Of a stretch of DNA of 21,320 nt, positions 2 through 17,639 are shown piece after piece. Where the stretch lies: contig JABCSY010000069.1 of assembly GCA_018238625.1 (NCBI GenBank), positions 1-21,320 on the forward strand, written 5' to 3'. A program made the position numbers and the translations under genes. Each line of letters starts with the position of its first letter. The stretch's first letter is position 1. A model generated the notes under the pieces. It was not told the origin of the DNA. It searched no databases and saw nothing but the letters and a program-made list of their open reading frames with translations. Origin of the DNA: Promethearchaeota archaeon. Its GTDB lineage: Archaea; Asgardarchaeota; Lokiarchaeia; Sigyniarchaeales; SOKP01.

Positions 2-1399
2 TGGAATCTAGCACCTTTCGTTATAGATAATTCTGGAGGGGGAGATTATACTTGGAATGAGGCTTCTGCTGAAACATGGTGCTCTGGTTCTGGAACTTTT
101 GAAGATCCATATCTAATTGAAAATGTTACAATCGATGGTGAAAATTTAGAGAATTGCATCACAATCAAAAATTCAGACAAATATTTTAGAATCGAAAATT
201 GCACGGTTTTTAATTCAGGATCTGATGCTTATGAGGCAGGAATCCATTTAGATCTTGCAGGGAATGGAACATTAATCAACAACAATTGTTCATTTAATAA
301 TATTGGAATATTTTTTTATGGTTCTTATAATACTACTGTCTCAGGAAATACTGCGAATGATAATCAAGATTTAGGAATATATGTTCGTGGTTCTGATAAT
401 ACTACGGTCTCTGGAAATACTGCAAATAATAATCAACATTATGGAATTTGTATTTGTCGTTCTAATAGTACTACAGTCTCAGGAAATGTTGTTGATAATA
501 ATGGGATTTGCGGTACTTATATACTTGAAAGTGATTATAATCTAATCTATAAGAATTATTTCATAAATAATGGAATACATGCTTTAGATGAAGGAAACTT
601 TAATAATTGGAATTCTTCTATTATTGGTAATTATTGGGATAATTATACGGGTATTGATGCAGATAAAAATGGTATAGGGGATACACCTCATGACTTTGAA
701 GGAGGTACTGATTATCTTCCAATATATGATATCCAGGCACCTTTGATAACGATTTATTACCCCATAAATGGAACCTATTGGAGCTATAGGAAAAATATAA
801 ATATAGAAGCGACAGATACAAACTTAGATAGCATCTGGTACGAAGTGAACGGTCAGCGCGTATTTATAAGTTCGGGAGTAACGGTTCTTTTTGACAACGA
901 AATCTGGGTAGGACTGCCCGAAGGAGCTTTTATTATTGAAATTTATGCAAACGATACATTTGGACATCTTAACGATACTTATTCTTTATTATTATATAAA
1001 GACACTACGGCACCAATCTTAACAATTAATAGCCCAATTCAAGACCAAGGATTTATCGATGCACCAACATTTAGTATCACTATCACTGAACTGAACTTAA
1101 ATACTATGTGGTATGTTATTGTTAGTGATGGAACAACAAAACACATAATTACTTCGACGACTGGTTCAATAGATGTTTCTGCCTGGAATTCTTTAACCGA
1201 CGGAACAATTACGATTAGATTTTATGCCAACGATACTGCAGGAAATGAAGTATATTCAGAAGTTTCAATCGTAAAAGATACATCTACAGCTCCAACACCA
1301 GGAATTCCCGGGTTTAATGTAATTATTGCATTAAGCGTGATTTTCTTAGTTTCAGTTGTTATAATTACGAGGAAAAAGAAATTATTAAATCTTAATTAA
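2..1399 (+). CDS. Cell-surface glycoprotein, 5'-truncated by the window edge: parallel beta-helix (NosD/CASH-like) domain, two Ig-like domains, and a C-terminal IPGF-TM-basic sorting signal (PGF-/Loki-CTERM-like)
   Basis: Frame 2 is open from base 2 and in frame with track ORF 743..1399, so TTG 743 is internal. It reads WNLAPFVIDNSGGGDYTW...GSGTFEDPYLIENVTIDG..., three (N/S)TTVSGN repeats, then GNYWDNYTGIDADKNGIGDTPH (typical NosD-like cap). Two Ig-like units contain YANDT(F/A)G. It ends GIPGF-NVIIALSVIFLVSVVIIT-RKKK. Confidence 0.85.
   Translation, partial: WNLAPFVIDNSGGGDYTWNEASAETWCSGSGTFEDPYLIENVTIDGENLENCITIKNSDKYFRIENCTVFNSGSDAYEAGIHLDLAGNGTLINNNCSFNNIGIFFYGSYNTTVSGNTANDNQDLGIYVRGSDNTTVSGNTANNNQHYGICICRSNSTTVSGNVVDNNGICGTYILESDYNLIYKNYFINNGIHALDEGNFNNWNSSIIGNYWDNYTGIDADKNGIGDTPHDFEGGTDYLPIYDIQAPLITIYYPINGTYWSYRKNINIEATDTNLDSIWYEVNGQRVFISSGVTVLFDNEIWVGLPEGAFIIEIYANDTFGHLNDTYSLLLYKDTTAPILTINSPIQDQGFIDAPTFSITITELNLNTMWYVIVSDGTTKHIITSTTGSIDVSAWNSLTDGTITIRFYANDTAGNEVYSEVSIVKDTSTAPTPGIPGFNVIIALSVIFLVSVVIITRKKKLLNLN
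329..502 (+). repeat. Three imperfect 69-bp (23-aa) coding repeats, corresponding to beta-helix rungs
   Basis: aatactactgtctcaggaaat at 329, aatactacggtctctggaaat at 398 and agtactacagtctcaggaaat at 467, with an exact 69-nt period. Confidence 0.8.
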
Positions 1400-2502: not shown

Positions 2503-4764
2503 TTAAATATTTAATTTTTGGCGCCAAAAATTCATTTTCATTCTGAGGTCTTCTTTCTCTGGTTGACTTAGCACATATGTTTTATTCCGTAGAGTTGTAC
2601 TAGTATTATGGATGTTTTTCAACACGCTGTTATAGCCCGTTTCTTTTATGTATTCGCTCTGAAACTTTTCGAGAGCCGAAGAGAGTTCAATACCCATCAA
2701 GGAGTCGACATTATCAAAAATTAAGTCAAATTGTTTTGTTAACATAGATTTTTCCCCGGATGGCGTTGTTTTTGGAACAGGCACCTCTTTTTCTGGTGGA
2801 GCAATTACTTTTGGTATCTGAACTATTGGTTTTAATTTTACGTGTTCTTTTAGTGGTTCTTCAGCGATCTTAACGGGTTGTTTAGCTAATTTCGGTGGTG
2901 GAGTGTCTTGTACGATTGATGACTTAATAGCATGCATAACTTCCTTTCTTGCACCCATCCAGGATTCTTCGAGAATAGGGACAAAGATTTTGATATGTTC
3001 TTCTATAATGCTTCCTATTCCAGCAATCTCAGTTATAGACTCCCCTCTTACTTCTGCTTTTGAAAGCACGCATACGATTACTTCTTCGTAGTCACGATTT
3101 ATGCCCCATAAATTTTGCAAAGCACGGTGTCTATAATCAACATTATCCATTTTATCGAACTGTTGGACTACAGATGCGTGTTCTGGATTATTGAAATCTA
3201 TATTTGCGGCTATTCTGAAATTTATCCTTGAAGGGCGGGCCATTATTGCGTCAAGATCTACATCGCTGATTTGAGGGGCAATAAGTAACACTCTCATTTT
3301 TGCTTTTGAGATCTCATCGCTAATGTGTGCCTTAGCGGCTTCAGGTGAGCGAATGAACCAAATATCTTTCATTGTAATTGAGCTCCCGGTTTTCGCTTGC
3401 TCCCAGAATTCACTTGTGACTTTTTCGGATCTTTCGAGTTTATTCAATATATTATCAAGCGTATTATCTAAAGTCGCGACAATTCGGTCGTAAAAAACAT
3501 CTTTTAAATTGCCAAGCGATTTAAACGTCGTACCAGAGATTCCTTCTATTTTTTCTTCAGCCATTAGTATTGCTTTATTAAAATTTTCAGTAATCTCACT
3601 GTATATCTTTTCTTTATCTTCTGCTAACTGTGAGTTAAGACCATCAATATTTTCAAGGGCACTTTTTAACGATGTTTTCAATTTAGATATTACTTCAGAA
3701 TCAACGCCCGTTGGTTGAGTTGTTTTTTTTAGCTCGTCAGAAAAGGCAACTTGGCTTACGCTGAGTTGCACATTGATATTATCAGAGATATCGCTTAATT
3801 TTGCGTTTATAACCTTATCAATCACTTGTTCAACAGTTTGGGAGATTACTCCAAGACGTAATTTCTGCAGATTTTGAGAGACAGTTGATTTAATGTTCTC
3901 AAATTCGTTCTTCAAATCGTTAACTTGTCCTTTAATGATTTTAGACGTCTTTGTGTTAATATCATCAAACTGTTTTTTTAGATCTGTGATTTGAGGCGTT
4001 TCCATAGCCGAAACAGCAGCTCCTTCGAGGCTTGAGATTTCCTCTGAGATCCCTTTGATTTGATCCATTACAGCTAATGTGCCGTCAAGCTCTTTCTTCT
4101 GTGATTTCATCTGTGTTAGCATATTTTCTTTTAACTCTTTCATTAACTCCGTAGGTATGGGCTTTCTTTCAACTTTAACTTCAACCGTTCCAGACTCTGA
4201 TTCTAACTGCGCAAACGATTTTTCTAGTTGGGCAGGTATGCTGACTTTAATATCTGAGATATATTTGTGAAATTTTTGTAACTGGCTAACTAAGGCGGCA
4301 TATGGAGGTAGAGCGCTATAATGCGGTTTTGCTCCAATAATTTCCTTAAAAAGACCTTTCTTAACAAATTTAGTCGCCATTTCTTGACATTTAGCTTTAG
4401 GTTTTCCCGTTAAAATTGCCATTTCGCCGATACTAACGGCTTCACGACCCGTGATTCTGAAATACAATTCAATCTCGTCGTCAGAAAGATCAATTTCGCT
4501 CAAAACTTGTTTTGTAAGTTCTTTTGAATAGGAAACTTCTTCTTTTTTGAGCATTTCTTTTATTTCAAAATTCTCGACTTCTAAATATTGATTGAAATAA
4601 ACAACTAAATTATGTTCAGGAGATCCGTGTACAGCTTCTTTTTTTATCGGAAATTTAGAAACAGCTTGGTATTCCTTCTTGGTTATTTTAAAAGGGATTT
4701 CTTTCAAACATAATTTACATGTATACGGTATCTCTACTTCTTCATCATCTTTAAATAAATACAA
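2503..4764 (-). CDS. Large TrmB-like protein: N-terminal CxxC/HxxxxH putative Zn site, TrmB-type winged HTH, ~300-aa coiled coil, TrmB effector (PLD-like) domain, Pro-rich linker, C-terminal helical domain
   Basis: C16xxC19...H46GSPEH51. LSEIDLSDDEIELYFRI...SIGEMAILTGKPKAKCQEMATKFVKKGLF...HYSALPP matches the TrmB HTH pattern. DIWFIRSPEAAKAHISDEISKAKMRVLLIAP matches the start of the TrmB C-terminal domain. TTG start with GAGGAG 7 nt upstream. Confidence 0.7.
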   Translation of the reverse strand: MYLFKDDEEVEIPYTCKLCLKEIPFKITKKEYQAVSKFPIKKEAVHGSPEHNLVVYFNQYLEVENFEIKEMLKKEEVSYSKELTKQVLSEIDLSDDEIELYFRITGREAVSIGEMAILTGKPKAKCQEMATKFVKKGLFKEIIGAKPHYSALPPYAALVSQLQKFHKYISDIKVSIPAQLEKSFAQLESESGTVEVKVERKPIPTELMKELKENMLTQMKSQKKELDGTLAVMDQIKGISEEISSLEGAAVSAMETPQITDLKKQFDDINTKTSKIIKGQVNDLKNEFENIKSTVSQNLQKLRLGVISQTVEQVIDKVINAKLSDISDNINVQLSVSQVAFSDELKKTTQPTGVDSEVISKLKTSLKSALENIDGLNSQLAEDKEKIYSEITENFNKAILMAEEKIEGISGTTFKSLGNLKDVFYDRIVATLDNTLDNILNKLERSEKVTSEFWEQAKTGSSITMKDIWFIRSPEAAKAHISDEISKAKMRVLLIAPQISDVDLDAIMARPSRINFRIAANIDFNNPEHASVVQQFDKMDNVDYRHRALQNLWGINRDYEEVIVCVLSKAEVRGESITEIAGIGSIIEEHIKIFVPILEESWMGARKEVMHAIKSSIVQDTPPPKLAKQPVKIAEEPLKEHVKLKPIVQIPKVIAPPEKEVPVPKTTPSGEKSMLTKQFDLIFDNVDSLMGIELSSALEKFQSEYIKETGYNSVLKNIHNTSTTLRNKTYVLSQPEKEDLRMKMNFWRQKLNI

Positions 4765-4802: not shown

Positions 4803-6059
4803 TTAAAAAGTGACTTTTTCTGGAAAGGATATTTCCAATAAGTTTAAGGCTTTTTTAGCGATTTCGTAAGTAATTTTTCCATCGGCGTCTTCCTTTCTAT
4901 AAGCTTCTCTGATTTTTGGTAGTAAATATTCTGGAAAAATTGTTAGTGGTTTGATGTCCGTAAGCAAACAAATCCAACTTCTTTTATTCTCGTCTTTAAT
5001 TTCAGTAATCACGTTTAATTTTTTCAGGTTGTCAAGCAAGATTTCAGTGACGGCAAACTCTGAAAAGATTTTTGGTATTTTATCTAGTGGATAATGGTTC
5101 GAACGCATTAAGACGAAAAAATCGTAAACATCAGGGTTAAGTAATATTGAAGCCAATTTTTTGGTATTTTCAAAAGGTTCTACAAAGGGATCGTAATTTG
5201 TGAAAAAGTCTGTAGACTTTTGCTTAAATAAAGGTAACAACTCGTTGTCTGTGTCTTTAAAATGTTTTAACAGACGCTCGTTGGGAACGCGGGCTATAAT
5301 TATGTCCTTGACTAAAAATAAATACTCTCCTTGATTTGTTATGATTCCAGTCTTTTTATCTTTCTCACCTTTTACCCAATCACGCCTTACTAAGTTCAAT
5401 TCTATAAAAGGTCTAAGTAAAATATCAATATTAGCAGTAGGTTTCATTTTTTCAACGGTTCTTTTCATTTCTCTTTTTGAAATGGGTTGTTCTCTTAAGA
5501 TTTCTAAGATTTTTAACCGTTCGTCGCTATTATAGATTAAAGCTACTTTTTGAAGTTTGTCTAATTGACTTAAACGCTCAATTTGAAATACGGTATACTT
5601 TAATTCGTTCATTAAGCGGACATTTACGTTGGAAACTAAATCCAATTGCCTCGTATTTACAGCTTTAGTTAATTTTTCAAAAATAGTATCTAATCTTTTT
5701 GCCATATCTTTAATTAAATCCTCAAACAATTCTATTTCGTCGTCTAATTCAAATATAGACATCGCAAGATATTGAGTTCCATCGGCTAACTGCTTGAAAT
5801 ACGACAAAACTTTATATGGCGTTTCTTTTAAGCGGCCAGTATAGAAGTTACTGAAGCCATATTTCATGCCAAAAATACCGGTGGTATGTTGATAGAACGT
5901 GGCAAATATATCGTTCTCTATGATTAGTTCTGAAAAGTCGTCTTCTTTAAATTTATCGTTCTTAAACACTAATTGAATTGGGCTAAATTCGGGATCTATC
6001 TCCCCTGTAGTTTCATTCTGATTCAATTTAAATTGAAACGTACATATCGATTGTATCAA
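4803..6059 (-). CDS. Hypothetical protein, probably an N-terminal longin/uDENN-like domain followed by winged-helix domains
   Basis: 418-aa ORF with a TTG start and upstream GAGG. The N-terminal beta-beta-alpha-beta-beta-beta-alpha pattern ends YLAMSIFELDDEIELFEDLIKDMAKRL. ERLKILEILREQPISKREM...NIDILLRPFIELNLVRRDW...YLFLVKD is wHTH-like. A second wHTH-like unit is VYDFFVLMRSNHYPL...LLDNLKKLNVITEI...WICLLTD. The CDS is secure, the domain call tentative. Confidence 0.55.
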   Translation of the reverse strand: MIQSICTFQFKLNQNETTGEIDPEFSPIQLVFKNDKFKEDDFSELIIENDIFATFYQHTTGIFGMKYGFSNFYTGRLKETPYKVLSYFKQLADGTQYLAMSIFELDDEIELFEDLIKDMAKRLDTIFEKLTKAVNTRQLDLVSNVNVRLMNELKYTVFQIERLSQLDKLQKVALIYNSDERLKILEILREQPISKREMKRTVEKMKPTANIDILLRPFIELNLVRRDWVKGEKDKKTGIITNQGEYLFLVKDIIIARVPNERLLKHFKDTDNELLPLFKQKSTDFFTNYDPFVEPFENTKKLASILLNPDVYDFFVLMRSNHYPLDKIPKIFSEFAVTEILLDNLKKLNVITEIKDENKRSWICLLTDIKPLTIFPEYLLPKIREAYRKEDADGKITYEIAKKALNLLEISFPEKVTF

Positions 6060-6298: not shown

Positions 6299-7948
6299 TT
6301 GCTATTAAGGATAAAAAAAAGATTTGGAGTAATGTTTTTAATTACAACGATTATGATTTTTATTGTGCTACCCCTTTCATTACCTACCAATTTTGCAAGT
6401 AATAAAGAGCAATTAAATATTAACCTATCGGGTGAAACCACCCACACAGATGTTCTTTGGCTTGATAATCCAACATTCGAAGATCCTATTGAACCCATTT
6501 GGTTTCCCGATATTGAGGGAGATGAGTCAGATGTTGATACTAGTACAAGTCTAAATCAAGCAAATGTAGTTATAGTAGGAGAATCGCGAGAAAAAGAAGT
6601 TCTCCTCAATACGGCAACTCAATCAAATTGGATGGCTTTTTTAAAGAGTGACTTGGAAATTGTACCTCAACGTGCTTCTGTTCCATATTACGGAATAGAT
6701 GATGATGGAGCATGGTGTAGTCATTGGTGGTGGGAAGGAGAAGGTGGTGGACAACCAAAAAATACTCCTCGTATGCATTGGAAAACAAATGTGAGCATGC
6801 CCGTCGATATGTCTGATTATATCATTACATCACTATCATTTAACGCAATAATTAATGCCAGTGTAGACAGAAATATTGATGTAGATGGTGATACTACTGC
6901 TAGGTGGGTCCCCGGCGTAGCCGGTATAAATCAATTCCAAACCTATGATTATGCTCGATTTTATGTAGAAGTAACTACTTTGGATATTGATGTGTTGAAT
7001 ACTTATAGAATTGCATTTAATCAAACGAGGATACTAGGTAATGATACTCTTTCTTTTTACGATATAGAAGGATATATTGGAATCTATGAAGAACAAGCAA
7101 TAATTGACGCCTTAAACAATGTTTTAGCAGTAGATCCGGGTCATAATAATTTTACTATTGTTTTAGGAATATATATGTATTGCGAAGATAATTATTCTGG
7201 TACGGATCGCGATCACTGGGACGATATACGCTTTAAATTTCTTAACTTAACATTTTCATATGAAAAAAAGATAAATCAATTTACTTTCGGCTCATGGGCT
7301 CAAGATCTGGACGAAATAAGTGGTTCTAACATTCAAATAACTGATGCTAATCTTAATTTTAAATATAAAATAGATAAAAATTGGACAGAATCATCCCAAA
7401 ATTCAAAATTTTTGATTTTTATCAATGAGAGAAAATTCGATCCGAAGATGAGCTTAATAGATTATGAGTATTCAAGTGATTTTCAAGAAGCTGGAAGATT
7501 TGATATTACGGAAATATTGTTACCTTATGAAAATTTTACACTTTCAATCCAAGTTTTCCTAGCTGAAGATTTTGAATTAGAGAGTAATAGAACAATTTCT
7601 ATAACTGATGTTTATCTGTACATATCTTATATTGAAACTTTTTCGGATATTTTTTCAGAACCTTGGGTATTTGCGGGATTATTCATAATTGCTGTATTTG
7701 CAGCTACTGTATTAGGTGGTTACTTGATTGCTTATCAATCATATTTAAAATACCCCGTTCCAGTCAGAAAAGTGAGAAAGTATAGAAAAACGCTGTCTAG
7801 TGATAAAACTCCCGGTGTTGGTATTGTTAGTCAAAAGACTTCATTTAGTAAGCACTACCATGCCGAATTAAAAAAGACAGACAAGTTTTTAAAAGGCGCC
7901 CCTCTAGATGGTAAAATCGTACGGGATAAATTGATTGGAAAACAATAA
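6299..7948 (+). CDS. Membrane-anchored surface glycoprotein, paralog 1 (ectodomain type A, tail type X)
   Basis: Basic then hydrophobic N-terminal signal. Acidic beta-rich ectodomain starting WLDNPTF with many N-x-S/T sequons. TM EPWVFAGLFIIAVFAATVLGGYLIAY, then basic tail KYPVPVRKVRKYRKTL. Confidence 0.85.
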   Translation: MLLRIKKRFGVMFLITTIMIFIVLPLSLPTNFASNKEQLNINLSGETTHTDVLWLDNPTFEDPIEPIWFPDIEGDESDVDTSTSLNQANVVIVGESREKEVLLNTATQSNWMAFLKSDLEIVPQRASVPYYGIDDDGAWCSHWWWEGEGGGQPKNTPRMHWKTNVSMPVDMSDYIITSLSFNAIINASVDRNIDVDGDTTARWVPGVAGINQFQTYDYARFYVEVTTLDIDVLNTYRIAFNQTRILGNDTLSFYDIEGYIGIYEEQAIIDALNNVLAVDPGHNNFTIVLGIYMYCEDNYSGTDRDHWDDIRFKFLNLTFSYEKKINQFTFGSWAQDLDEISGSNIQITDANLNFKYKIDKNWTESSQNSKFLIFINERKFDPKMSLIDYEYSSDFQEAGRFDITEILLPYENFTLSIQVFLAEDFELESNRTISITDVYLYISYIETFSDIFSEPWVFAGLFIIAVFAATVLGGYLIAYQSYLKYPVPVRKVRKYRKTLSSDKTPGVGIVSQKTSFSKHYHAELKKTDKFLKGAPLDGKIVRDKLIGKQ

Positions 7949-7987
7949 GAAATACTTATTCAAAAATGAGTATTGAATTAATCAAAA

Positions 7988-8010
7988 TTCTTTTTTCACT
8001 TCTTTTTTTT
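7988..8010 (+). terminator. T-tract, putative terminator after paralog 1
   Basis: ttcttttttcacttctttttttt lies about 40 nt past the stop codon. Confidence 0.45.
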
Positions 8011-8142
8011 AATTGAGAAATAAACTAAAATATAATGAAATTATAATTTAAAATTATTAAATATTATAAGTGTGGCTAGCTATATCCTAATATATCCTAC
8101 AATTTTTAATTCATAAATTTTAATTATAAAAATGTGAATCTA

Positions 8143-9801
8143 ATGGCTATTAAATTTATCAAGAAGAAATTCTATGTTTATTTTGTTATTGTTCTCTTCA
8201 TCGCGTCTTTAAATTTAGTTGTATTGAATCAAAATCTAAACGTTGCAGAACAACAAACAATGATTAAAACCTCAACCGTAATTCCTCATACAAAAGAATG
8301 GCTTGTAAATAATGGTTTTGAAGGCTCGATTGATCCTTGGTTTTATAGCATAGAAGGTGACTCTTCCGATGTTAATGCTACTTTCAGCCCGGGTCAAGGC
8401 AATTTAGAAATCACTGGAGATCAAGGATACTTTTCAGAGATTTCAGGAACACCAACTTCGGACGATTGGTTAAACGTTACAAACCCTGCTTTCCCTGCTT
8501 TGCCAGATTATCACGGAATTGATGAATATGGGTGTGAAGCAAATCATACATGGATCGATCCTGATGATACAAACCAATCTCCAAGCGTTCATTGGCAACG
8601 AAATATAACAATGCCTATTAATATGGCAGATTATGTAATTTCTTCTGCATCTATTTCTGCAGTTTATAACGCATCAGTTACAACTCAACCTGGAGGTGAT
8701 CCAAACCCAAGTGACTATTATGGAGTAGATTGTCCTGGTGATGCCGTTCAAAATGCAGGTGATTACGATAGTGTTAGATTTTACATATTAATCTCAGATT
8801 TGGAAGATAACGAAAAATATGAAGTAGCGTGGTATCAAAGTACAGATTTAGGACAAGACAGTCCAGAAATTAGTAATATCACAGATAGTTTGATGAACAC
8901 TGTAGTAGAAGAAGCATTAATATTTTATTTAACCTCTCTTTTTGAGCGAGATAACTATAACTTTAAAGTTACTCTAGGAATTAGAATCAAATGTGTTGAT
9001 AATTGGAATTACGATCGTGATCGATGGGATTCTTTAAGAATTAAATCGTGTAATTTATCTTTTAATTATGTTAAAAAAATTAACCAATTCACAAGCGTTT
9101 CTTGGAACCAGATTGGAAACAACATTACGGGTGAGAATTTACAAATTACTGAGGCTAATCTCAAATTTAAGTATAAAATAGACCAATTATGGCCTACTGA
9201 TTTATCTCCAAACTCAGAAATACAAATTCTGTTAAACAATAACTCCCACGAAGAAGCTCTTAAACTGAATCTAGCATCAACCGGATTTCAAGAAGCGAAG
9301 CAAGGCGGTTTTAACGTTACTAAGTTGATTCTGAAAAATGTTAACATTGGACTTTCTATTCAAGTATATCTAGCAGATGGATTTTTATTAAATCGTTCAA
9401 TTGTTATATCGATTGACGATGTATCTCTCGTAATTTCATACATAGAAATTCGCTCAGATGTATTCGGTGAGCCAGAGATATTCCGTCTTCTAGCAATTAT
9501 TGCTGTAATTGCTGGAGGAATCGTAGCTACATATTTCGTGTTGTATCAAAGAATATTTAAATATCCATTACCAGTAAGAAAAGTGCGAAAATACAAAAAG
9601 ACTTTGAGAGCGGCTAATCCTCCAAAAAAACACATAACAAATAGTAAAGATGCTTTTAATAAGTTGTATAAAAAGGAATTAACTAAATCAGCAAAATATA
9701 CCAAAACTAAACCAGTATCACAACTTGATAAAATACATAAAAGTGTCGATACGAAAAAATCAACCAGCATTAAAAATACAGGAGGGTTAGAGCAGAAATG
9801 A
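8143..9801 (+). CDS. Membrane-anchored surface glycoprotein, paralog 2 (ectodomain type B, tail type Y)
   Basis: Same architecture: WLVNNGF, PSVHWQRNITMPINMADY, TM, then KYPLPVRKVRKYKKTL. Start placed at ATG 8143 because the track's GTG 8134 lies in a GTGA SD-like motif. Confidence 0.85.
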   Translation: MAIKFIKKKFYVYFVIVLFIASLNLVVLNQNLNVAEQQTMIKTSTVIPHTKEWLVNNGFEGSIDPWFYSIEGDSSDVNATFSPGQGNLEITGDQGYFSEISGTPTSDDWLNVTNPAFPALPDYHGIDEYGCEANHTWIDPDDTNQSPSVHWQRNITMPINMADYVISSASISAVYNASVTTQPGGDPNPSDYYGVDCPGDAVQNAGDYDSVRFYILISDLEDNEKYEVAWYQSTDLGQDSPEISNITDSLMNTVVEEALIFYLTSLFERDNYNFKVTLGIRIKCVDNWNYDRDRWDSLRIKSCNLSFNYVKKINQFTSVSWNQIGNNITGENLQITEANLKFKYKIDQLWPTDLSPNSEIQILLNNNSHEEALKLNLASTGFQEAKQGGFNVTKLILKNVNIGLSIQVYLADGFLLNRSIVISIDDVSLVISYIEIRSDVFGEPEIFRLLAIIAVIAGGIVATYFVLYQRIFKYPLPVRKVRKYKKTLRAANPPKKHITNSKDAFNKLYKKELTKSAKYTKTKPVSQLDKIHKSVDTKKSTSIKNTGGLEQK

Positions 9802-11438
9802 ATAAATCGCGAAAAAACAAGAAATCAGTATATTTTATAACGCTATTTTTAATTTTTGGTATGATCTTCTTAAGTTCTTTAAATATTCAAAACCAGAATC
9901 TAAAGAAAAATATGGAGTATAATACGCTTAAACTTTCAACAATAAAAGAATATCAAAAACAATGGTTGAAAAATTCTAATTTTTCAATACCAGTTGATCC
10001 ATGGGAAAGTCAAGTTCAAGGAGACGCTTCTGATATAAATTCCTTTTCTAGCGTTGGTCAAGCAAATTATGAAGTTATAGGGGAACAGAGAAGTTATTCA
10101 AATATATCTGGTACTCCTTTAAGTTCAGAATGGACGAAAGTTCATAATCCTGAATTCCCCTTATACCCAGATACATCCACAATAAATTCTGATGGTTGTT
10201 ATGTTTCTCATACCTTTGCAGAAGGAGCTGATCAATTTCCAAGCGTTCATTGGGAGAGAAATGTTTCAATGCTAGTTGATATGGAAGACTACATAATAAC
10301 TTCTGCCTCTCTTTCAGCTGTAGTAAATGCTTCAGTTACAGCTTCCCCGGGAGATTGGGGTGGGGGGGGGATAGAAGCTCCAGGTGATGCTACAGGTTCT
10401 GGTAGTACTCAAAATTATACATGGGATTATGTTAGGTTCTATGTATTATTATCAGATTTGACGAAAACTAAAGTCTATGAAGTTGCATATAATCAAACTA
10501 TTGATCTTGGGACAGATTTAGCTGGTGCAACTGATACAATGCTTGATACATTTATGGCAACAGTATCGGAAGAAGATTTGATTTTTTATCTCACCTCCAT
10601 TTTATCAAGTGATTTTCAAAATTTTACAATTACTTTAGGAATTCGAATCTGGTGCGAGGACAATTGGTGGAGTGACCGTGATATATGGGACGCTTTACTT
10701 ATAAAATCTTGTAATCTCACATTTACTTACGAAAAAAAGATTGATCGCTTTACAACAGCATCCTGGAACCAAATTGGAAACACGATCAGTGGAGAAAATA
10801 TCGAAATTACTGGCGGAAACCTCAAATTTCAATATAAAATTGACCAATTATGGCCAGTAGGTTCATCTCCAAATTCGGAAATACGCTTTTTTATAAATGA
10901 TAATTCTTTGTTAGAAACTATTAAGTTAAGCTCAGCAACCACCAATTTTCAAGAGGCAAAAACAGAAGGTTTTGATGTAACAACATTGATTTTAAAAGAC
11001 GTTAATATCTCAGTTTCAATTCAAGTATTTATAGCAGACACTTTTGCGTTAAATCAAAACATCACTATTTCGATAACAGATGTGTATTTAGAGATTTCTT
11101 ATACGGAGTTCATTCGTGACACTGAAGAAACACCTTGGTTTTTTAGTGGAATATTTATAATTGCTCTCATAGCGGTAGGCGCATTATCGGGGTTTTTAAT
11201 TGCTTACATTAAAGTATGGCGATATCCCGTTCCTGTTCGAAAGGTCCGTAAATATAATAAGACTTTAGCAAAAGAAAAAGGTCCTGATTTGAAAATTGTT
11301 ACGCGTAAGACTGCTTTCAATAAGAATTATCACGAAGAGCTAAAAAAAACAGACAAAATTCTAACAGGCACTCAGATGGATGGAAAAATATTGAAAGATA
11401 AATTGCTCGACAAAAAAGAAGGGGCATTACCAAAATAA
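9798..11438 (+). CDS. Membrane-anchored surface glycoprotein, paralog 3 (ectodomain type B, tail type X)
   Basis: ATGA overlap with paralog 2 and GGAGGG at 9781-9786. WLKNSNF, PSVHWERN, TM TPWFFSGIFIIALIAVGALSGFLIAY, then RYPVPVRKVRKYNKTL. Confidence 0.85.
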   Translation: MNKSRKNKKSVYFITLFLIFGMIFLSSLNIQNQNLKKNMEYNTLKLSTIKEYQKQWLKNSNFSIPVDPWESQVQGDASDINSFSSVGQANYEVIGEQRSYSNISGTPLSSEWTKVHNPEFPLYPDTSTINSDGCYVSHTFAEGADQFPSVHWERNVSMLVDMEDYIITSASLSAVVNASVTASPGDWGGGGIEAPGDATGSGSTQNYTWDYVRFYVLLSDLTKTKVYEVAYNQTIDLGTDLAGATDTMLDTFMATVSEEDLIFYLTSILSSDFQNFTITLGIRIWCEDNWWSDRDIWDALLIKSCNLTFTYEKKIDRFTTASWNQIGNTISGENIEITGGNLKFQYKIDQLWPVGSSPNSEIRFFINDNSLLETIKLSSATTNFQEAKTEGFDVTTLILKDVNISVSIQVFIADTFALNQNITISITDVYLEISYTEFIRDTEETPWFFSGIFIIALIAVGALSGFLIAYIKVWRYPVPVRKVRKYNKTLAKEKGPDLKIVTRKTAFNKNYHEELKKTDKILTGTQMDGKILKDKLLDKKEGALPK

Positions 11439-11643
11439 TAGATTTCCTTTCTATATCTGATGCAAAAAAAGTAACTCTAAAAATACTAATTTTTTCTTAC
11501 ATTGTAATCCAATGATATTAATAAGATCTAGACTAAATATTAAATGTTAAACTAAATTATTAATAAGTATTTCCTTATAGGAATTATTTAGTCTAAAATT
11601 TTAATAATTTAAAATTATTTAAATTTGGTAAAGGGTGAATATT

Positions 11644-14600
11644 ATGGTTATTAATAAAAAGACCAAGGCAAAACATGTTATTGCACTTTTATGTCTCATT
11701 TTTATTGGGAATCTTTCAAATATTTTCATGTTAAACTTAAATAGTCATAATAATGATTTAAGAGATATTCACCCCAAATCTGAAGGAATTATTCAAGATG
11801 ATTATACTATTGAATGGCTAGATAATCCTACATTTGAGACTCCAATAACGCCGTGGTATAACGCAACTCAAGGAGATACATCTGATATAAATGCTACTAC
11901 AGATCTCAACCAAGCGAATTATAAAATACTGGGCGATTCAGGAGTATTACAAGTTGATGACGCTTTGAGTAGTTCAGATTGGACTGTTTTTCGAAATCCA
12001 GGAAGACCTGTTTTACCAGATACTTATGGTATAAGTTCTGCTGGCGCTGAAGTATACCACCTCTGGGATGAGGGTGTAAACCAAACGCGTAATACGCCTA
12101 GTATTCACTGGAAAAGAAATATTCAAATGCCAGTAAATATGTCTGATTATATTATTACTTCAGCATCATTAGAAGTAGTTTTTAACGCTACTGTAACTGT
12201 TTCACCTCATTCAAGCGGAGGTATAGATAGGGAGGGTGATGCGGGATTGAGTGCTTACGCAATTGGTGATTTTGCTGAATTCTATATTTTAATTTCGGAT
12301 ATTAATAATACTCAAGAATATCAATTGGCATATTATCAAACTGTTGATTTAGGGCAAGACGACCCAGCAACCCCGAGTATTGCAGATACTATTCTAGATT
12401 CTGTACCTGAAGATGTCTTAATTAGCTTGTTATCAGCGGTTTTAAGTATTGATAATTATAATTTTACCATAACAATGGGAATTGATATATACTGCGAAGA
12501 TAATGAATATGGAGCAGATGAAGATGAATGGAATTCACTATTAATGAAATCACTAAATTTAACATTTAGTTATAGGAAAAAAATAGATAAGTTTACTTCA
12601 CTCTCATGGAATCAAATTGGAGATACAATCAGTGGAGCAAATATTGATATTAAAAATGCTACACTAAATTTTAAATATAAGATTGATAAGACTTGGACAG
12701 AAGAATCTCCAAATTCAGAATTAAGGTTTTTCATTAATAATAATCAGTATCCAGAGGCTGTTAAATTAAGTACAGCTACTGCTATATTTCTAGATGCCAA
12801 AGTAGGGGGATTTGATGTAACCAATCTAATCTTAAAGAATGTTAATATCACTCTTTCAATTCAATTGTATTTAGCAGATACATTTCCTTTAGATCAAGAA
12901 TTCACTCTTTCAATTGATAATGCATCGCTATTAATATCTTATACTGAAACCACTATTGAAGAGACAACCAGTTTGGAGATTTTTCTAAATGACGAGGATA
13001 AAACTTTAGAAAAATCAATTGAAGTCACTATGGGTAATCCGGTTAATATTACTACTATATATAAAGATTCAACAGACAATTTTATACAATATGCTACAGT
13101 ACAGTTGGGGGGATTAGGATTACCTAAGAATTTAACAGAAAATAGTTCGCTGGAACATTATAATATTACTATTCATTCTTCGAACTTGCAGATTGGTAAT
13201 AATTACTTAACTATATCTGCGAGTAAAAAGTATTATGAATCAATAGAAGTTCTAATCAATATCAAAGTACTTGAAAGAAACACAGATTTACAACTCTTTT
13301 TAGATGGGACAAACAAAACCCTGGATAAATCTATACAAATGATATATGGGAATGATGGGAACATAACAATATCATACAAAGACATTGAACAACTCCCATA
13401 TACTCATATCGATGGAGCAACTGTTGAATTAATAGGGTTAGCTACCCCAGAAAATTTAACAGAAGATCCCTCAAATGAACAATATTTTATATTAATCAAC
13501 ACTATGGATCTCGGTTTAGGTAACAGTTTCCTCACTGTTAATGCATATAAAGAAAATTATACTACTCAATCCATTCGTTTTAAAATAGAAGTGCTTGAGA
13601 GAAATTGTTATATAGATAACATAAATTTAAACGGAATTGAAGCCATATCTATAGAGATTCCTTGGAATGAAACTTTAAGCATTTCAATATCTTATAATGA
13701 CAGCTTTACAAATGCTTTTATAGACGGAGCTTTGGTACAACTTTCGGGGACTGGAATTTCTGAAAGCTTCACAGAAAATTCACCAATAGAATATACTTTA
13801 GATATCAACACAGCATTAATGGCGCTTGGCATTAATTTTCTAACGATTTCAGCTAATAAAGAGAATTACACTCTTTCTTCGAGAATAATTTCTATATCTG
13901 TCATTGAAAGAGACACTAAAGTTGATGTTTATCTAAATGGTACGCTGTCATCTAATTTTGAATTTTACAATATTTCTATTGGAGAAAAATTAAACATTAC
14001 TGTTTTTTATAAGGATTTGAACACAGACGCTTTCCTTAATTCTGCGAATGTTCGACTCATTGAATCTGGGATTCCAACAGATTTAACTGAGAGCTTAATC
14101 TTTAACCAATATTATATCACTATAAATTCTGATGATTTAGGAGTAGGAGTCAAATTTTTAACTATAAGCGCAAAAATAGAAAATTATACATTAACTTCAG
14201 AAGTAATAACACTTATAGTAAATGAAAAGAAAACTCAACTACTACTTTTTCTTAATGGATCTCAGTATAATAATGGAGATACTATCGAATTGGAAATAAC
14301 TGATAAATTAAATATCACTGTAAAATATCTAGATAACATTACGAAAGAATATCTCGGTGGTGCAGATGTTGATATAATAAACCAAGGAGATATGACAGAA
14401 AATGCATTACTAGAGCATTACAATATAACGATAGATATAATTGATTTAAATAGCACTTTAAATAGGATGGTCATCCGTGCTCAAATAGAAAATTACCAAA
14501 CAGCCCTTATTGAGTTTTTCATACAAATTATTGAAAGAGGGTCCACTGGCGAGCTTTTTATCAACGAATTAAATAAAACCGCAGATCCTTATATTGAGCT

Positions 14601-15468
14601 TACTATAGGTTCTCTTCTTAATTTAACTATCAAATATAGTGATATACGAACAGAAAATCATATTTCAGGTGCTATTGTTCAGTTAAATGGAGATTTAACG
14701 GGTTTGTTATCTGAATATATAGCTTTAGAACAATATTCTATAATAATAAATACGACTGATTTGGGAGTTGGATTAAATATCTTTACTATAATTGCGGAGA
14801 AAGCAAATTTCGAGTTGTTTTTAATCCAAAAATTATATGTAATTGTAGAGAGAATACATACAAATATTACAACAATTTCAGGGGAGTCAAATATAGTTAT
14901 AAGACCCGGCGAAAGTGTTAATTTAAGAATTGTAATAAACAACTTAGACTTTGGAGGTTTAGTGAAGGGGGCTAGTGTTACATATAGATGGGCTCGTGGT
15001 GAAGGTTTCTTAACTGATAATGATAATGATGGCATATATACAGTATTATTAACAGATATTCCGGAAGGTTCATTCACTCTTACAATAAATGCATATAAGG
15101 GTGAAGATTACGATTTTACATCATATGAACTGGTAATTAGTGTTATTAGACCGGCAGAAGAAATATTACTTTTTCAAATACTAATGATTGTTTCAAGTAT
15201 AGTTGCAGCGAGTGCGTTGATTTATCTATATCTATATCAAAAGGTATTAAAGTATCCTAAACAAGTTAGAAAAGTTAGAAAATTTAAGAAAACGCTTAGA
15301 AAAACAAAAATTCCAAGAATTGATATAACGGAGAGAGAAAAAGCTTTCAATGTTGAATACAAAAGTGAATTAAATAAAACATCCAAATTATTAAAAGTAA
15401 AACCCGTAGAACAAATTACTAAACCAGAACAAATTATAAAGAAACCAATTGAAACTTCTAAGAGTTAA
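11644..15468 (+). CDS. Large membrane-anchored surface glycoprotein, paralog 4 (ectodomain type A, seven Ig-like repeats, tail type Y)
   Basis: Head domain starts WLDNPTFETPITPW, followed by a ~730-aa repeat stalk, TM and KYPKQVRKVRKFKKTL. Start placed at ATG 11644, 5 nt after GGGTGA (SD); the track uses GTG 11635. Confidence 0.85.
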   Translation: MVINKKTKAKHVIALLCLIFIGNLSNIFMLNLNSHNNDLRDIHPKSEGIIQDDYTIEWLDNPTFETPITPWYNATQGDTSDINATTDLNQANYKILGDSGVLQVDDALSSSDWTVFRNPGRPVLPDTYGISSAGAEVYHLWDEGVNQTRNTPSIHWKRNIQMPVNMSDYIITSASLEVVFNATVTVSPHSSGGIDREGDAGLSAYAIGDFAEFYILISDINNTQEYQLAYYQTVDLGQDDPATPSIADTILDSVPEDVLISLLSAVLSIDNYNFTITMGIDIYCEDNEYGADEDEWNSLLMKSLNLTFSYRKKIDKFTSLSWNQIGDTISGANIDIKNATLNFKYKIDKTWTEESPNSELRFFINNNQYPEAVKLSTATAIFLDAKVGGFDVTNLILKNVNITLSIQLYLADTFPLDQEFTLSIDNASLLISYTETTIEETTSLEIFLNDEDKTLEKSIEVTMGNPVNITTIYKDSTDNFIQYATVQLGGLGLPKNLTENSSLEHYNITIHSSNLQIGNNYLTISASKKYYESIEVLINIKVLERNTDLQLFLDGTNKTLDKSIQMIYGNDGNITISYKDIEQLPYTHIDGATVELIGLATPENLTEDPSNEQYFILINTMDLGLGNSFLTVNAYKENYTTQSIRFKIEVLERNCYIDNINLNGIEAISIEIPWNETLSISISYNDSFTNAFIDGALVQLSGTGISESFTENSPIEYTLDINTALMALGINFLTISANKENYTLSSRIISISVIERDTKVDVYLNGTLSSNFEFYNISIGEKLNITVFYKDLNTDAFLNSANVRLIESGIPTDLTESLIFNQYYITINSDDLGVGVKFLTISAKIENYTLTSEVITLIVNEKKTQLLLFLNGSQYNNGDTIELEITDKLNITVKYLDNITKEYLGGADVDIINQGDMTENALLEHYNITIDIIDLNSTLNRMVIRAQIENYQTALIEFFIQIIERGSTGELFINELNKTADPYIELTIGSLLNLTIKYSDIRTENHISGAIVQLNGDLTGLLSEYIALEQYSIIINTTDLGVGLNIFTIIAEKANFELFLIQKLYVIVERIHTNITTISGESNIVIRPGESVNLRIVINNLDFGGLVKGASVTYRWARGEGFLTDNDNDGIYTVLLTDIPEGSFTLTINAYKGEDYDFTSYELVISVIRPAEEILLFQILMIVSSIVAASALIYLYLYQKVLKYPKQVRKVRKFKKTLRKTKIPRIDITEREKAFNVEYKSELNKTSKLLKVKPVEQITKPEQIIKKPIETSKS
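12961..15150 (+). repeat. Seven tandem ~104-aa Ig-like beta-sandwich repeats
   Basis: Recurring NIT(V/I)xYxD...GAxVxL...LTE...YxIxIxxxxLxxG...LTIxAxxENY pattern. Units end VLER, VLER, VIER, VNEK, IIER, IVER and VIRP. Confidence 0.8.
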
Positions 15469-15606: not shown

Positions 15607-16668
15607 ATGAGTTCTAATATTAAAATTTTTAAGTTAAATTATTCTGGAACCTTTAAGGAAATTTCAGAAGAGAAAATACTCCTTAGCTTTACTCTGTTTG
15701 ATATTTTAACGTTTTACGTGCCAGATCAAAGGTTAATGTATATTTGGATTGGGAAAAAAGTCTCCCAAAGCTTGAAAAAACTTATCCCACAAATACGAGG
15801 AGCTATTTCAAGTGAGTATCCCGAATTAAAAATTTTAAGAAACATTACAATCGAATCGGGATTAGAACCTGCGGAATTTTTAAGTATTATTGGGATTACA
15901 GAAGAGAGATTGAAAGCTAGAATTAAAAAACTAGAGATAGACTTGTTACCAATTCTCTCTGAAATAAACAGGTTAAAAGAAAAAGTAGATAAATATTTCA
16001 TTTCAGAAAATTATAATATGGCAATTGATGCCGCTCAGAAAATTGTTAACCTTGCCAAGGATATAGACGATGATTCTCTTGAGCAAGATCAAATAAATTT
16101 TATCAACGAAGCTCGAGCGAGAGAGAGCGCCAGCGAGATTCTCCACCAAATAGAGCACAATAGTAAGGAAGCGATTAAGAGATTTGACCAGTTAGTGGAA
16201 GTAGAGAATTATCGAGAGGCACATAGCATAGCGGAACATTTCAAAAAAAAATACGATAATGAATACGACATTTCTTCGATTCCCTTAGCCCAGCAATTAA
16301 TATTAAAAGACGAAAACATGATATATAGTTTGAAAATCGAACAAACAAAGATAAAAAAGGAAATTGATGAATTCTACAATTCTTTCAAGACAGGTCCCAA
16401 TAAAGGTAATTTAAAGCAAGCAAAAGAATTTTTTGGAAAGATTAAAGCTGAGATTAAGAATTTATTCGATGATGATGTTATAAATAGTTTGAAACAATTT
16501 GAAACCCAATATAATGAAGCAAAAAAAGAAACAGTTAGTGAGATAGCTCAAGTAAGTATGGAAGCCCTTAATAATTTGGAAAAAGGTGAAATATCTAAAG
16601 CTATAGAAATCTTTGAAAAAATTATCAAAAAATTAGAATTTACCAATAAAACTTTGACGGGTGCATAG
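15607..16668 (+). CDS. Gelsolin-domain protein with a C-terminal helical/coiled-coil region (Asgard 1DGelX-like architecture)
   Basis: The first ~97 aa show gelsolin-repeat hallmarks: IKIFKL, DILTFY..., MYIWIGKK and IESGLEPAEFLSII (xxGxEPxxF). The remainder is amphipathic helical with TPR-like AIDAAQKIVNLA and AIEIFEKII. Confidence 0.75.
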   Translation: MSSNIKIFKLNYSGTFKEISEEKILLSFTLFDILTFYVPDQRLMYIWIGKKVSQSLKKLIPQIRGAISSEYPELKILRNITIESGLEPAEFLSIIGITEERLKARIKKLEIDLLPILSEINRLKEKVDKYFISENYNMAIDAAQKIVNLAKDIDDDSLEQDQINFINEARARESASEILHQIEHNSKEAIKRFDQLVEVENYREAHSIAEHFKKKYDNEYDISSIPLAQQLILKDENMIYSLKIEQTKIKKEIDEFYNSFKTGPNKGNLKQAKEFFGKIKAEIKNLFDDDVINSLKQFETQYNEAKKETVSEIAQVSMEALNNLEKGEISKAIEIFEKIIKKLEFTNKTLTGA

Positions 16669-16670
16669 TA

Positions 16671-17639
16671 TTGGATTTAAACTCAGACAAAGAGACTAAT
16701 AATAAGAAAAAAATAGTAGTTCTATCTAAAATTGATGAGTTGAAAGTAATAGCGAATAACCACTATCTAATGGGAAAGTTTGATGACGCAATAAAAGTAG
16801 CAGAAGAAATAATGGATATAGCCGAAGAGGCTAAACTATATTCTATGGTAAGGGAAGAAGGAGAGTTCATTGCGGACCTTTATAAAAAAGTTAAAGAAAA
16901 TAATAAATTTATTGAAATTGAAAATCAACAAAATACTCTAAAAAAACAACTTGAACCATTAGAAATCCAGTTTAATAGCTATATAAGTACTAATAATCTC
17001 ACATTAGCAGAAGAAACGTTAGAACAAGCAAAAAAACTTCTGGAAAAGCTTAAAGATACCGAAACGCTGAAAATGTGGGAAACTTCTGAAGCAATGTTTT
17101 TAGAATTAAAAAAAAGAATTGATATCAATGAAGACATTGAACTTTCCTTAGCAGAAGTTTCAGGATTAATAGATAATTACGAATTTGATAAGGCAAAACA
17201 AATACTTAACTCTAAAATAGAATTATTGCAAAAAGAAGATTTCTCAGATTCTCAACAGAAATTAAAAATAAAAATGAAAAGTTTAGTTGATGCTGAGGAT
17301 AAATATATTAAATTAGAAGAAGAACTAAAAGATTTAGAAAGCGAAATTAAACAAAATGTTTCTCAAAATCAATTTGAGCAAGCAATAAACAATATTAAGA
17401 AAATTATTAAAATTTCAAGATTTATTGGTAAAAATCATTATTTAGAGAAATATACTGAATATATTGATATTATTGAAAATAAGATAAGGGAAGTTTCCAA
17501 AAGCGAAGAATTTAAAATTAAGGTTAACAATTTAAACATCCAAGGTATCGAAGCCTTGAAATACGACGATTATTCTGGAGCTCTTGAAATATTTAAAGAA
17601 ATATTGTCCCAATTAAAAGCTGTATTTAATAAAAAATAG
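16671..17639 (+). CDS. Helical/TPR-like coiled-coil protein, paralogous to the non-gelsolin part of the upstream protein
   Basis: Starts 2 nt after the upstream stop, with a TTG start and a GGGTG SD. LSKIDELKVIANNHYLMGKFDDAIKVAEEIMDIA aligns with upstream LSEINRLKEKVDKYFISENYNMAIDAAQKIVNLA. ALEIFKEILSQL aligns with AIEIFEKIIKKL. Confidence 0.7.
   Translation: MDLNSDKETNNKKKIVVLSKIDELKVIANNHYLMGKFDDAIKVAEEIMDIAEEAKLYSMVREEGEFIADLYKKVKENNKFIEIENQQNTLKKQLEPLEIQFNSYISTNNLTLAEETLEQAKKLLEKLKDTETLKMWETSEAMFLELKKRIDINEDIELSLAEVSGLIDNYEFDKAKQILNSKIELLQKEDFSDSQQKLKIKMKSLVDAEDKYIKLEEELKDLESEIKQNVSQNQFEQAINNIKKIIKISRFIGKNHYLEKYTEYIDIIENKIREVSKSEEFKIKVNNLNIQGIEALKYDDYSGALEIFKEILSQLKAVFNKK

Follow-up and report, generated by a model that had tools for sequence, protein, structure and literature searches.

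Integrins consist of two different single-pass subunits, alpha and beta, each having a large ectodomain and a short, conserved cytoplasmic tail. The vertebrate KIR, LILR and SIRP receptors are encoded by tandem paralogues, whose ectodomains are homogenised by conversion and whose transmembrane and tail types are kept distinct. Archaeal S-layer glycoproteins are rich in N-glycosylation sequons and are held by a C-terminal membrane anchor of the PGF-CTERM/archaeosortase type. Here we compare with these systems a tandem array of four genes, g1 to g4, at positions 6299-15468 of a 21,320-nucleotide stretch of DNA from a Promethearchaeota archaeon of the Lokiarchaeia (the window; contig JABCSY010000069.1 of assembly GCA_018238625.1). 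The products of g1 and g3 carry one type of membrane anchor and cytoplasmic tail, named X, and those of g2 and g4 are non-X, or Y, a label that covers several types in the family. We read the whole as a conserved Loki-type surface-protein locus composed of Y-then-X gene pairs, with a mosaic made by gene conversion and with products that probably form heterodimers. This reading in its entirety is on balance probable.

The likeness to integrins is one of analogy only. It lies in the putatively paired single-pass subunits and in the position of their genes next to the gene of an actin regulator; no integrin chain is among the matches listed for a structural model of the g3 product, either by Foldseek or by the VIA wide search, and no counterpart of talin or kindlin was identified. 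The KIR, LILR and SIRP receptors are unrelated to g1-g4 in sequence, fold and domain of life. They also act singly with adaptor chains, whereas the g1-g4 types look like partners of one complex. Like S-layer glycoproteins, the g1-g4 products are sequon-rich and held by a C-terminal membrane segment. Membership of the PGF-CTERM/archaeosortase type was considered and rejected, there being no PGF motif and no NCBIfam match, and the tails running far past the helix instead of ending after a few basic residues. According to one report, cultured Loki-type Asgard cells have no ordered S-layer and bear unidentified "complex surface proteins" on their actin-filled protrusions (PMC9834061). The same report states that these proteins are thought to mediate cell-cell contacts relevant to eukaryogenesis (PMC9834061).

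Four paralogues and two types of anchor and tail

All four genes are on the forward strand. Gene g1 (6299-7948) encodes a short family member of 549 aa with a fast-evolving ectodomain and an X-type anchor and tail of the subtype X1, the helix/tail module being encoded by 7646-7948. Gene g2 (8134-9801) encodes a short member of 555 aa with a Y anchor and tail (module 9457-9801) and is the first gene of a Y-to-X pair, whose second gene, g3 (9798-11438), encodes a short member of 546 aa with an X-type anchor and tail (module 11118-11438). Gene g4 (11635-15468) encodes a long member of 1277 aa, with the ectodomain at about 11635-12960 and a non-X anchor and tail at 15151-15468. The four are paralogues, with an overall identity to g1 of 39-44%, and they are the only copies of the family in the source genome. 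Each product begins with a basic N-terminus and a single hydrophobic segment; its ectodomain has about 400 aa and abundant N-x-S/T sequons, and at the C-terminal end come one membrane helix and a basic tail of 65-80 aa. The juxtamembrane motif K-Y/F-P-x-x-V-R-K-V-R-K-Y/F-x-K-T-L is almost invariant among them. The earlier note on this DNA had described the four genes by their common motifs; the genes are as described, and every motif that it listed is present in the alignment. The start contexts which it had reported for g2 and g4, GTGAATCTAATGGCTATTAA and GTGAATATTATGGTTATTAA, are present as well, and the shared context is conserved in the orthologues.

The g4 product is more than twice as long as those of g1-g3. 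A stalk that the earlier note had overlooked is placed between its ectodomain and its anchor. It is made up of six tandem repeats, each of about 100 aa (about 12970-14835, forward strand), after which there is one further beta domain. The repeats are homologous to residues ~283-362 of the family's own ectodomain. Stalk repeats of the g4 type were also observed in proteins of about 1240 aa that have the family tail and lack the ectodomain (loci L038, L041, L044, L047 and L048).

Sequence searches place the family outside those already named. No Pfam or NCBIfam family matches any of g1-g4, Pfam at E up to 1 giving chance-level hits only. Among 8000 candidates scored there were 834 homologues, and the named ones are all a 'hypothetical protein' from metagenome-assembled genomes of the Promethearchaeota/Lokiarchaeota type, except one called 'LapA family'. 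LapA identity was rejected: g3 scores 15.1 bits against PF06305, where the cut-off is 28, and the match covers the membrane helix only. The family is present in 36 of 41 related genomes, among them all 24 of the genus and 10 of 11 from the second family of the order, with 0 of 4 from another family. A profile of the tail module found only 248 clusters among 1.84 billion representatives. Genes g1-g4 encode an unannotated, Asgard-restricted family of single-pass membrane glycoproteins. Searches of the literature on Asgard gelsolins, surface proteins, adhesion and integrins turned up neither an account of this family nor one of a receptor-gelsolin cluster.

The relations among the four genes depend on the part compared. 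For the ectodomain, identity is highest between g2 and g3 (54.0%), followed by g3-g4 (49.5%), g2-g4 (48.2%), g1-g4 (43.2%), g1-g3 (41.3%) and g1-g2 (39.6%). For the helix and tail it is highest between g1 and g3 (57.0%), followed by g2-g4 (45.1%), g1-g2 (43.8%), g2-g3 (37.3%), g1-g4 (37.0%) and g3-g4 (34.3%). The solid links are the ectodomains of g2 and g3 and the anchors and tails of g1 and g3, and the X type of the latter two is a genuine common module. The claim of a complete two-by-two mosaic, in which the ectodomains of g1 and g4 form a class A and the tails of g2 and g4 a class Y, therefore stands for one link in each part, but its symmetry was overstated: A and Y are mostly residual classes, only marginally above the alternatives.

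The fold of the ectodomain was approached with an AlphaFold2 model of the g3 product, for which the mean predicted local distance difference test score (pLDDT) is 79, exceeding 85 over most of residues 50-440. The model has a two-part beta structure, a membrane helix at residues 447-475 and, at low confidence, a tail helix at 503-522. A whole-chain Foldseek search was poor, with template modelling (TM) scores of 0.1-0.2. The VIA wide search identified a jelly-roll beta-sandwich in the ectodomain, with matches to carbohydrate-binding modules (CBM) at Z 12.2-11.3 over 128-159 residues and a root-mean-square deviation (rmsd) of 2.8-3.6; among the matches are 4d0q_A (Z 12.2, 138 residues aligned, rmsd 3.2) and 4bj0_A (Z 11.7), together with the Kgp adhesin domain (Z 10.9) and the MAM domain of RPTPmu, 2v5y_A (Z 10.6). 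The likeness thus takes in CBM70, CBM4, CBM16, CBM61, the Kgp adhesin and the RPTPmu MAM domain, at Z 10-12 over ~130-160 residues; CBM and MAM domains have a beta-sandwich of the galactose-binding-like kind. The family ectodomain differs from these in that no Pfam CBM or MAM model matches its sequence, and in that a second beta domain interrupts its sandwich. The modelled fold would be read most economically as an ectodomain of the lectin or adhesion type.

Y-then-X pairs, fusions and the case for heterodimers

For comparison 16 loci were fetched, 14 from the genus (13 of them arrays with the downstream end available) and 2 from the second family of the order. The genomes compared are kin and not independent samples. 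In the window the stop codon of g2 overlaps the start codon of g3 (ATGA), and within g2, 12-17 bases before the g3 ATG, there is a GGAGG. Across the window and 13 genus loci, pairs of adjoining short genes have the non-X gene first and the X gene second in 10 of 10 cases, belonging to several paralogous lineages; the gap is -4 bases in six of these pairs, each with an ATGA overlap, +2 in two, and 9 and 32 in the remaining two.

Six loci go further and have a single open reading frame (ORF) of 1099-1157 aa in place of the pair (L036-L039, L043 and L045; for example L036:2531-5905, minus strand). These natural fusions of a non-X and an X unit contain the order ectodomain-helix-tail twice and four hydrophobic segments, and in all 6 of them a non-X tail comes first and an X tail second. 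Judged from the sequence, the four hydrophobic segments would put both ectodomains outside and both tails inside. Two tail modules were also found in 13 of the best 150 of the 248 tail-profile clusters. In five of six arrays an X1-type gene is directly followed by a long stalked gene, and in the window g2 and g3 intervene. The window can thus be read as a pair (g2, g3) nested in a pair (g1, g4), which would explain why ectodomains are alike within partners (2+3 and 1+4) and anchors across pairs (1+3).

The recurring genomic unit is thus a tightly coupled or fused Y-then-X pair, with g2 and g3 set between the X1-type g1 and the stalked Y-type g4. In the mechanism we propose, a Y and an X subunit would probably assemble as a cell-surface heterodimer that binds glycans or the surfaces of partner cells, and the conserved tails may engage cytoplasmic partners.

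The complex of g2 (residues 44-505) and g3 (residues 44-500) was predicted with an interface score, ipSAE, of 0.48 (0.50, 0.35 and 0.48 in the separate runs), the best control reaching 0.02. Agreement between the runs is at least 44% of contacts, and the pLDDT of the partner is 79 or higher. Of 157 solved complexes 116 reach the mark applied to this score, as do 2 of 215 mismatched pairs. The prediction is graded 'weak support', because scores up to 0.60 hold only 18 of the 157 solved complexes and both of the mismatches. With the gene coupling and the fusions taken as the prior, the prediction therefore nudges the odds upward. That the alternating anchors indicate heterodimeric receptors had been suggested at the outset; translational coupling, the fused ORFs and the weak-support complex prediction make Y/X heterodimers plausible, but the prediction does not tell X:Y from X:X.

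That last point is the start of a serious if rather unlikely alternative, by which the mosaic is real and the proteins are independent envelope glycoproteins or adhesins. The X and Y types would then be mere anchor variants, the fusions tolerated read-through accidents, and conversion a means of diversification, for example under pressure from viruses or partners. The low score of the complex and the inseparability of hetero- and homodimer agree with this, as do the many surface densities, still unidentified, of cultured Loki cells that are without an ordered S-layer (PMC9834061). Arrays vary strongly in copy number and composition among species, and the g1-type and g4-type genes are 137-293 bases from their neighbours and hence not coupled to them. 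A search of sequencing runs returned nine runs from six studies with at least half of the sampled words and no RNA run, a result that says nothing on expression. What speaks for partnership is the constancy of the order. Accidental read-through or indifferent anchor variants do not lead one to expect Y before X in every short pair, overlapped in six, and again in every fused ORF, nor a second tail module in 13 of the best 150 clusters, and the split between X and non-X tails is old and has been maintained.

Exchange of the central ectodomain-coding tract

The earlier note had proposed a test for incongruent ectodomain and tail trees, and these appear when relatives are brought in. Three short genes, in genomes G007, G016 and G013, have a g1-type X1 tail (clade support 98/86) and an ectodomain that falls within the g4 clade (99-100). 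Inclusion of the G013 gene breaks the long g1 branch, and the g1 clade then nests with window g4 at 100. By approximately unbiased (AU) tests, the ectodomain data reject the six X1-tail genes as one clade (log-likelihood difference 70.5, p 0.0066) and all 12 X-tail units together (187, p 1.7e-4), and the union of g1 with g4 seen in the ectodomain is rejected by the tail data (127, p 2.8e-21). Three of the ectodomain trees (among them those of the X1-clade and partner-pair analyses) were made by a quick method.

The partner pairs give a second view of the same conflict. Over 12 pairs the ectodomains cluster by genomic partner, sisters being the fused a and b units (99), the G004/G013 pair (98), the G017 pair (98) and the short and long genes of the G007 pair (99). 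The tails of the same pairs split X versus non-X, 12 against 12, with support 90/100, and for two of the groupings by partner the tail data give rejection (p 0.005 and 0.0003). On the sequences aligned, a single tree for ectodomain and tail is rejected by the 13 genus arrays.

Discrete central conversion tracts appear in some of these relatives. Residues ~60-320 of the G013 X1 gene are 64-90% identical to window g4 in sliding windows, and its first 40 residues and all beyond ~330 match the X1 orthologue at 50-88%; compared as DNA, the tract shows 81% identity over 936 bases. In the G007 X1 gene a tract of about residues 110-420 matches its own neighbour, with up to 95% identity per window. Both gene ends are spared in these two genes, a pattern expected of gene conversion between neighbours and not of the swapping of tails. 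An N-terminal motif, V-N-[LIF]-[MV]-x-I-K/N, is present in five of six g2-type genes and three of five g4-type genes. Because the g2 and g4 types thus share the N-terminal motif as well as non-X tails, conversion of the central tract is again the better account. We propose that neighbouring paralogues exchange a central ectodomain-coding tract of ~0.8-1 kb by gene conversion, as seen in the relatives and as may be supposed for the older events of the window, and that the 5' end and the 3' module (last beta strand, helix and tail) would keep their own type. Duplication of an ancestral pair followed by conversion of ectodomains, as the earlier note had suggested, is well supported at the level of the family by pair order, trees and tracts, but only moderately for the window genes.

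The exchange could have run in the reverse direction. Pairs would then have arisen by local tandem duplication, the ectodomain tree would be the history of the genes, and the end modules, that is the 3' anchor and tail and sometimes the 5' end, would have moved. The partner ectodomains of the G017 pair and of the a and b units, for example, are sisters with long branches of 0.5-0.8 changes per site, so their resemblance is not due to recent conversion. Ends can indeed move. The first ~45 residues of the X1-tail short gene of G007 (L040) were observed to be almost identical to those of the non-X first gene of G004 (L042), which belongs to another paralogue lineage; it follows that 5' ends have also been exchanged. 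We nevertheless judge the reverse direction quite unlikely: the two clearest cases have a foreign piece in the interior of the gene, between ends that stay with the orthologue, the g2-type and g4-type genes have both the N-terminal motif and non-X tails in common, and one old split of X from non-X costs fewer events than repeated acquisition of tails.

Within the window, conversion of the ectodomain tract may be reflected by shifts of affinity along g3 and g1. A maximum chi-square scan with 10000 permutations found that sites shared by g3 with g2 only, against those shared with g1 only, change from 96:41 to 6:28 at residue 422 (~base 11061; p=0.0001). For g1 the sites shared with g4 only, against those shared with g3 only, change from 44:30 to 12:38 at residue 418 (~base 7550; p=0.0015). 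Both boundaries are ~25 residues ahead of the membrane helix, hence the "anchor module" takes in the last beta strand of the ectodomain. The expected breakpoint near the junction of ectodomain and transmembrane segment was therefore located in g3 and g1, but the same scan gave no significant switch in g2 (p=0.15) or in g4 (47:53 and then 12:30, p=0.45). DNA identity between paralogues of the window is 66-79% over 80-826 bases, from which it follows that the window's exchange events are old.

Each of g1-g4 has an orthologue clade with the same ectodomain and the same tail, covering five genomes for g2 and for g3, two for g1 and three for g4. With these four clades the ectodomain tree joins g2 and g3 at 86/90, and the tail tree joins g1 and g3 at 92/99. 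Strict two-against-two sites among the four genes number 12 for g1+g4 against g2+g3, 13 for g1+g3 against g2+g4, and 9 for g1+g2 against g3+g4. All four such sites in the helix/tail region group g1 with g3. As the two-against-two sites are nearly balanced, the ectodomain alone is near star-like.

Several results weigh against the mosaic of Y-then-X pairs, beginning with the two null scans just given. On the four clades the ectodomain data do not reject g1 and g3 held together (AU p=0.079), and the tail data reject neither the alternative quartets (p=0.13 and 0.21) nor g2 and g3 held together (p=0.089). As the AU tests spare the rival quartets, incongruence on the window genes alone is suggestive only. 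The sisterhood of the g2 and g3 ectodomains depends on sampling, being found in two trees (86/90 and 99) and unrecovered in two others. Keeping the fused a and b units together is compatible with the tail data (p 0.25). In a tail tree of 52 rows "Y" is the remainder outside X and not a clade, and the X and Y tail types are not recognisable by eye in the second family of the order. The AU p-values are also optimistic, because the groups were named after the trees had been inspected. In that second family, the arrays L049 and L050 keep a juxtamembrane core of F-K-Y/F-P-x-Q/H-V-R; a multi-pass membrane protein of 446-450 aa is encoded between their array genes.

On such grounds one could suppose that no recombination took place among g1-g4, and that unequal rates and retained ancestral residues, with a fast g1 ectodomain and fast g2 and g4 tails, produced the pattern. 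The near balance of the ectodomain sites and the non-significant four-clade tests fit this. So do a stem of ~1 change per site for the g1 ectodomain and the fact that g4 is no closer to g1 than to g2 (47:53). The breakpoints in g3 and g1 are significant, however, and the union of the g1 clade with window g4 once the G013 gene is present is one that the tail data reject at p 2.8e-21, which leaves this explanation very improbable. The combinations of ectodomain and tail as an assembly artefact, made by chimeric joins between paralogues in a metagenome bin, have a probability close to nil: the genome is in 201 contigs with 7.6% estimated contamination and tandem paralogues are a classic source of misjoins, but a chimera, which would have undone the claimed mosaic, is excluded because the same combinations recur in the orthologues of other genomes, the closest relative being 89-92% identical over the full length with the same gene order, and the paralogue DNA, at no more than 66-79% over short stretches, is too dissimilar for misassembly.

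Neighbouring genes and a possible link to actin

Downstream of the array, the gene at 15607-16668 (forward strand) encodes a cytoplasmic gelsolin-domain protein of the 1DGelX type, with the gelsolin domain at residues ~1-98 (15607-15900) followed by a long helical-repeat domain. Its top profile match in the PDB is Thor ProGel, 7c2f_B (E 5e-5), which also takes rank 1 in Foldseek (TM 0.79 on the target), ahead of gelsolin, adseverin and villin domains. By VIA the gelsolin domain scores Z 13.3 with rmsd 2.0 and 88 of 88 residues aligned. In the AlphaFold2 model of the protein (pLDDT 86), residues 99-347 form helices throughout, long ones alternating with short ones, at pLDDT mostly 82-96. The product is predicted to have the 1DGelX architecture, the gelsolin fold and the helical 'domain X' both being found in the model. 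For the fold of the helical domain, MIT/TPR-like three-helix matches at Z 9-10 were considered and rejected, as they lie within the noise for helical models. The likeness to the Asgard 1DGelX proteins, a gelsolin domain joined to a long helical domain, belongs to the product of this neighbouring gene and not to g1-g4. The severing of actin filaments by Thor 1DGelX does not depend on calcium (Akil et al. 2020, PMC7444086). In the passages found in PMC7444086 the words 'operon' and 'neighbor' have 0 occurrences each.

The gene that always comes next (16671-17639, forward strand) encodes a helical TPR-like protein, paralogous to the helical domain of its gelsolin-domain neighbour. The order of array, gelsolin-domain protein of ~350 aa and protein of 330-390 aa, all on the same strand, holds in 14 of 14 assessable genus loci, the window included. 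A comparison by eye put the best gelsolin-domain match no more than ~350 bases from a family match for 21 of the 25 genomes of the genus. The homologue in the second family of the order is longer, at 914 aa, and has its own TPR-like partner of 693 aa, at a locus apart from the arrays (L051 and L052). Because of this separate locus outside the genus, and because of general genus-wide synteny, the adjacency is only weak evidence of a functional link, and it may be genus-level synteny only. A stronger proposal is that the array encodes a two-subunit adhesion receptor wired to actin, with Y/X heterodimers whose juxtamembrane motif and type-specific tails would recruit the downstream gelsolin-domain protein and its helical paralogue, so that contact by the CBM/MAM-like ectodomains with a glycan or a partner cell would remodel Lokiactin locally. 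We consider this unlikely.

Two genes on the other side of the array are transcribed divergently from it or lie beyond on the same reverse strand. The nearer (4803-6059, reverse strand, divergently transcribed) encodes a 418-aa protein that belongs to no known family and has 80-98% identity among members of the genus. The other (2503-4764, reverse strand) encodes a protein of 753 aa, in which residues 88-154 weakly match a TrmB-like winged helix, and is syntenic with the array in the genus. Cluster searches with the two proteins returned only unnamed Promethearchaeota clusters, one of them with TrmB in 33% of its members. Homologues of both are found beside the second-family arrays in a different orientation, at 29-31% identity for the 418-aa protein and 31-33% for the 753-aa protein. 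Since they accompany arrays in both families, they are the better candidates for functional partners, and are perhaps regulators. At the contig edge, a 5'-truncated ORF (2-1399, forward strand) encodes NosD/right-handed beta-helix and Ig-like (Big_13) domains, probably of a surface protein.

The locus offers testable candidates for such surface proteins of Loki-type cells: a receptor-like family, restricted to Asgard archaea, that combines an ectodomain of the lectin or adhesion type with a strictly conserved cytoplasmic motif and a paired or fused design. Throughout one genus its array constantly adjoins a gelsolin gene of the putative actin-severing type. Among archaea the mosaic is a clear case of a pattern otherwise described chiefly for the immune receptors of animals, in which conversion makes the ectodomains of adjoining genes alike and the types of anchor and tail stay distinct. 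If the wiring of the receptor to actin is true, it would be a functional forerunner of the eukaryotic adhesion systems that connect receptors to actin.

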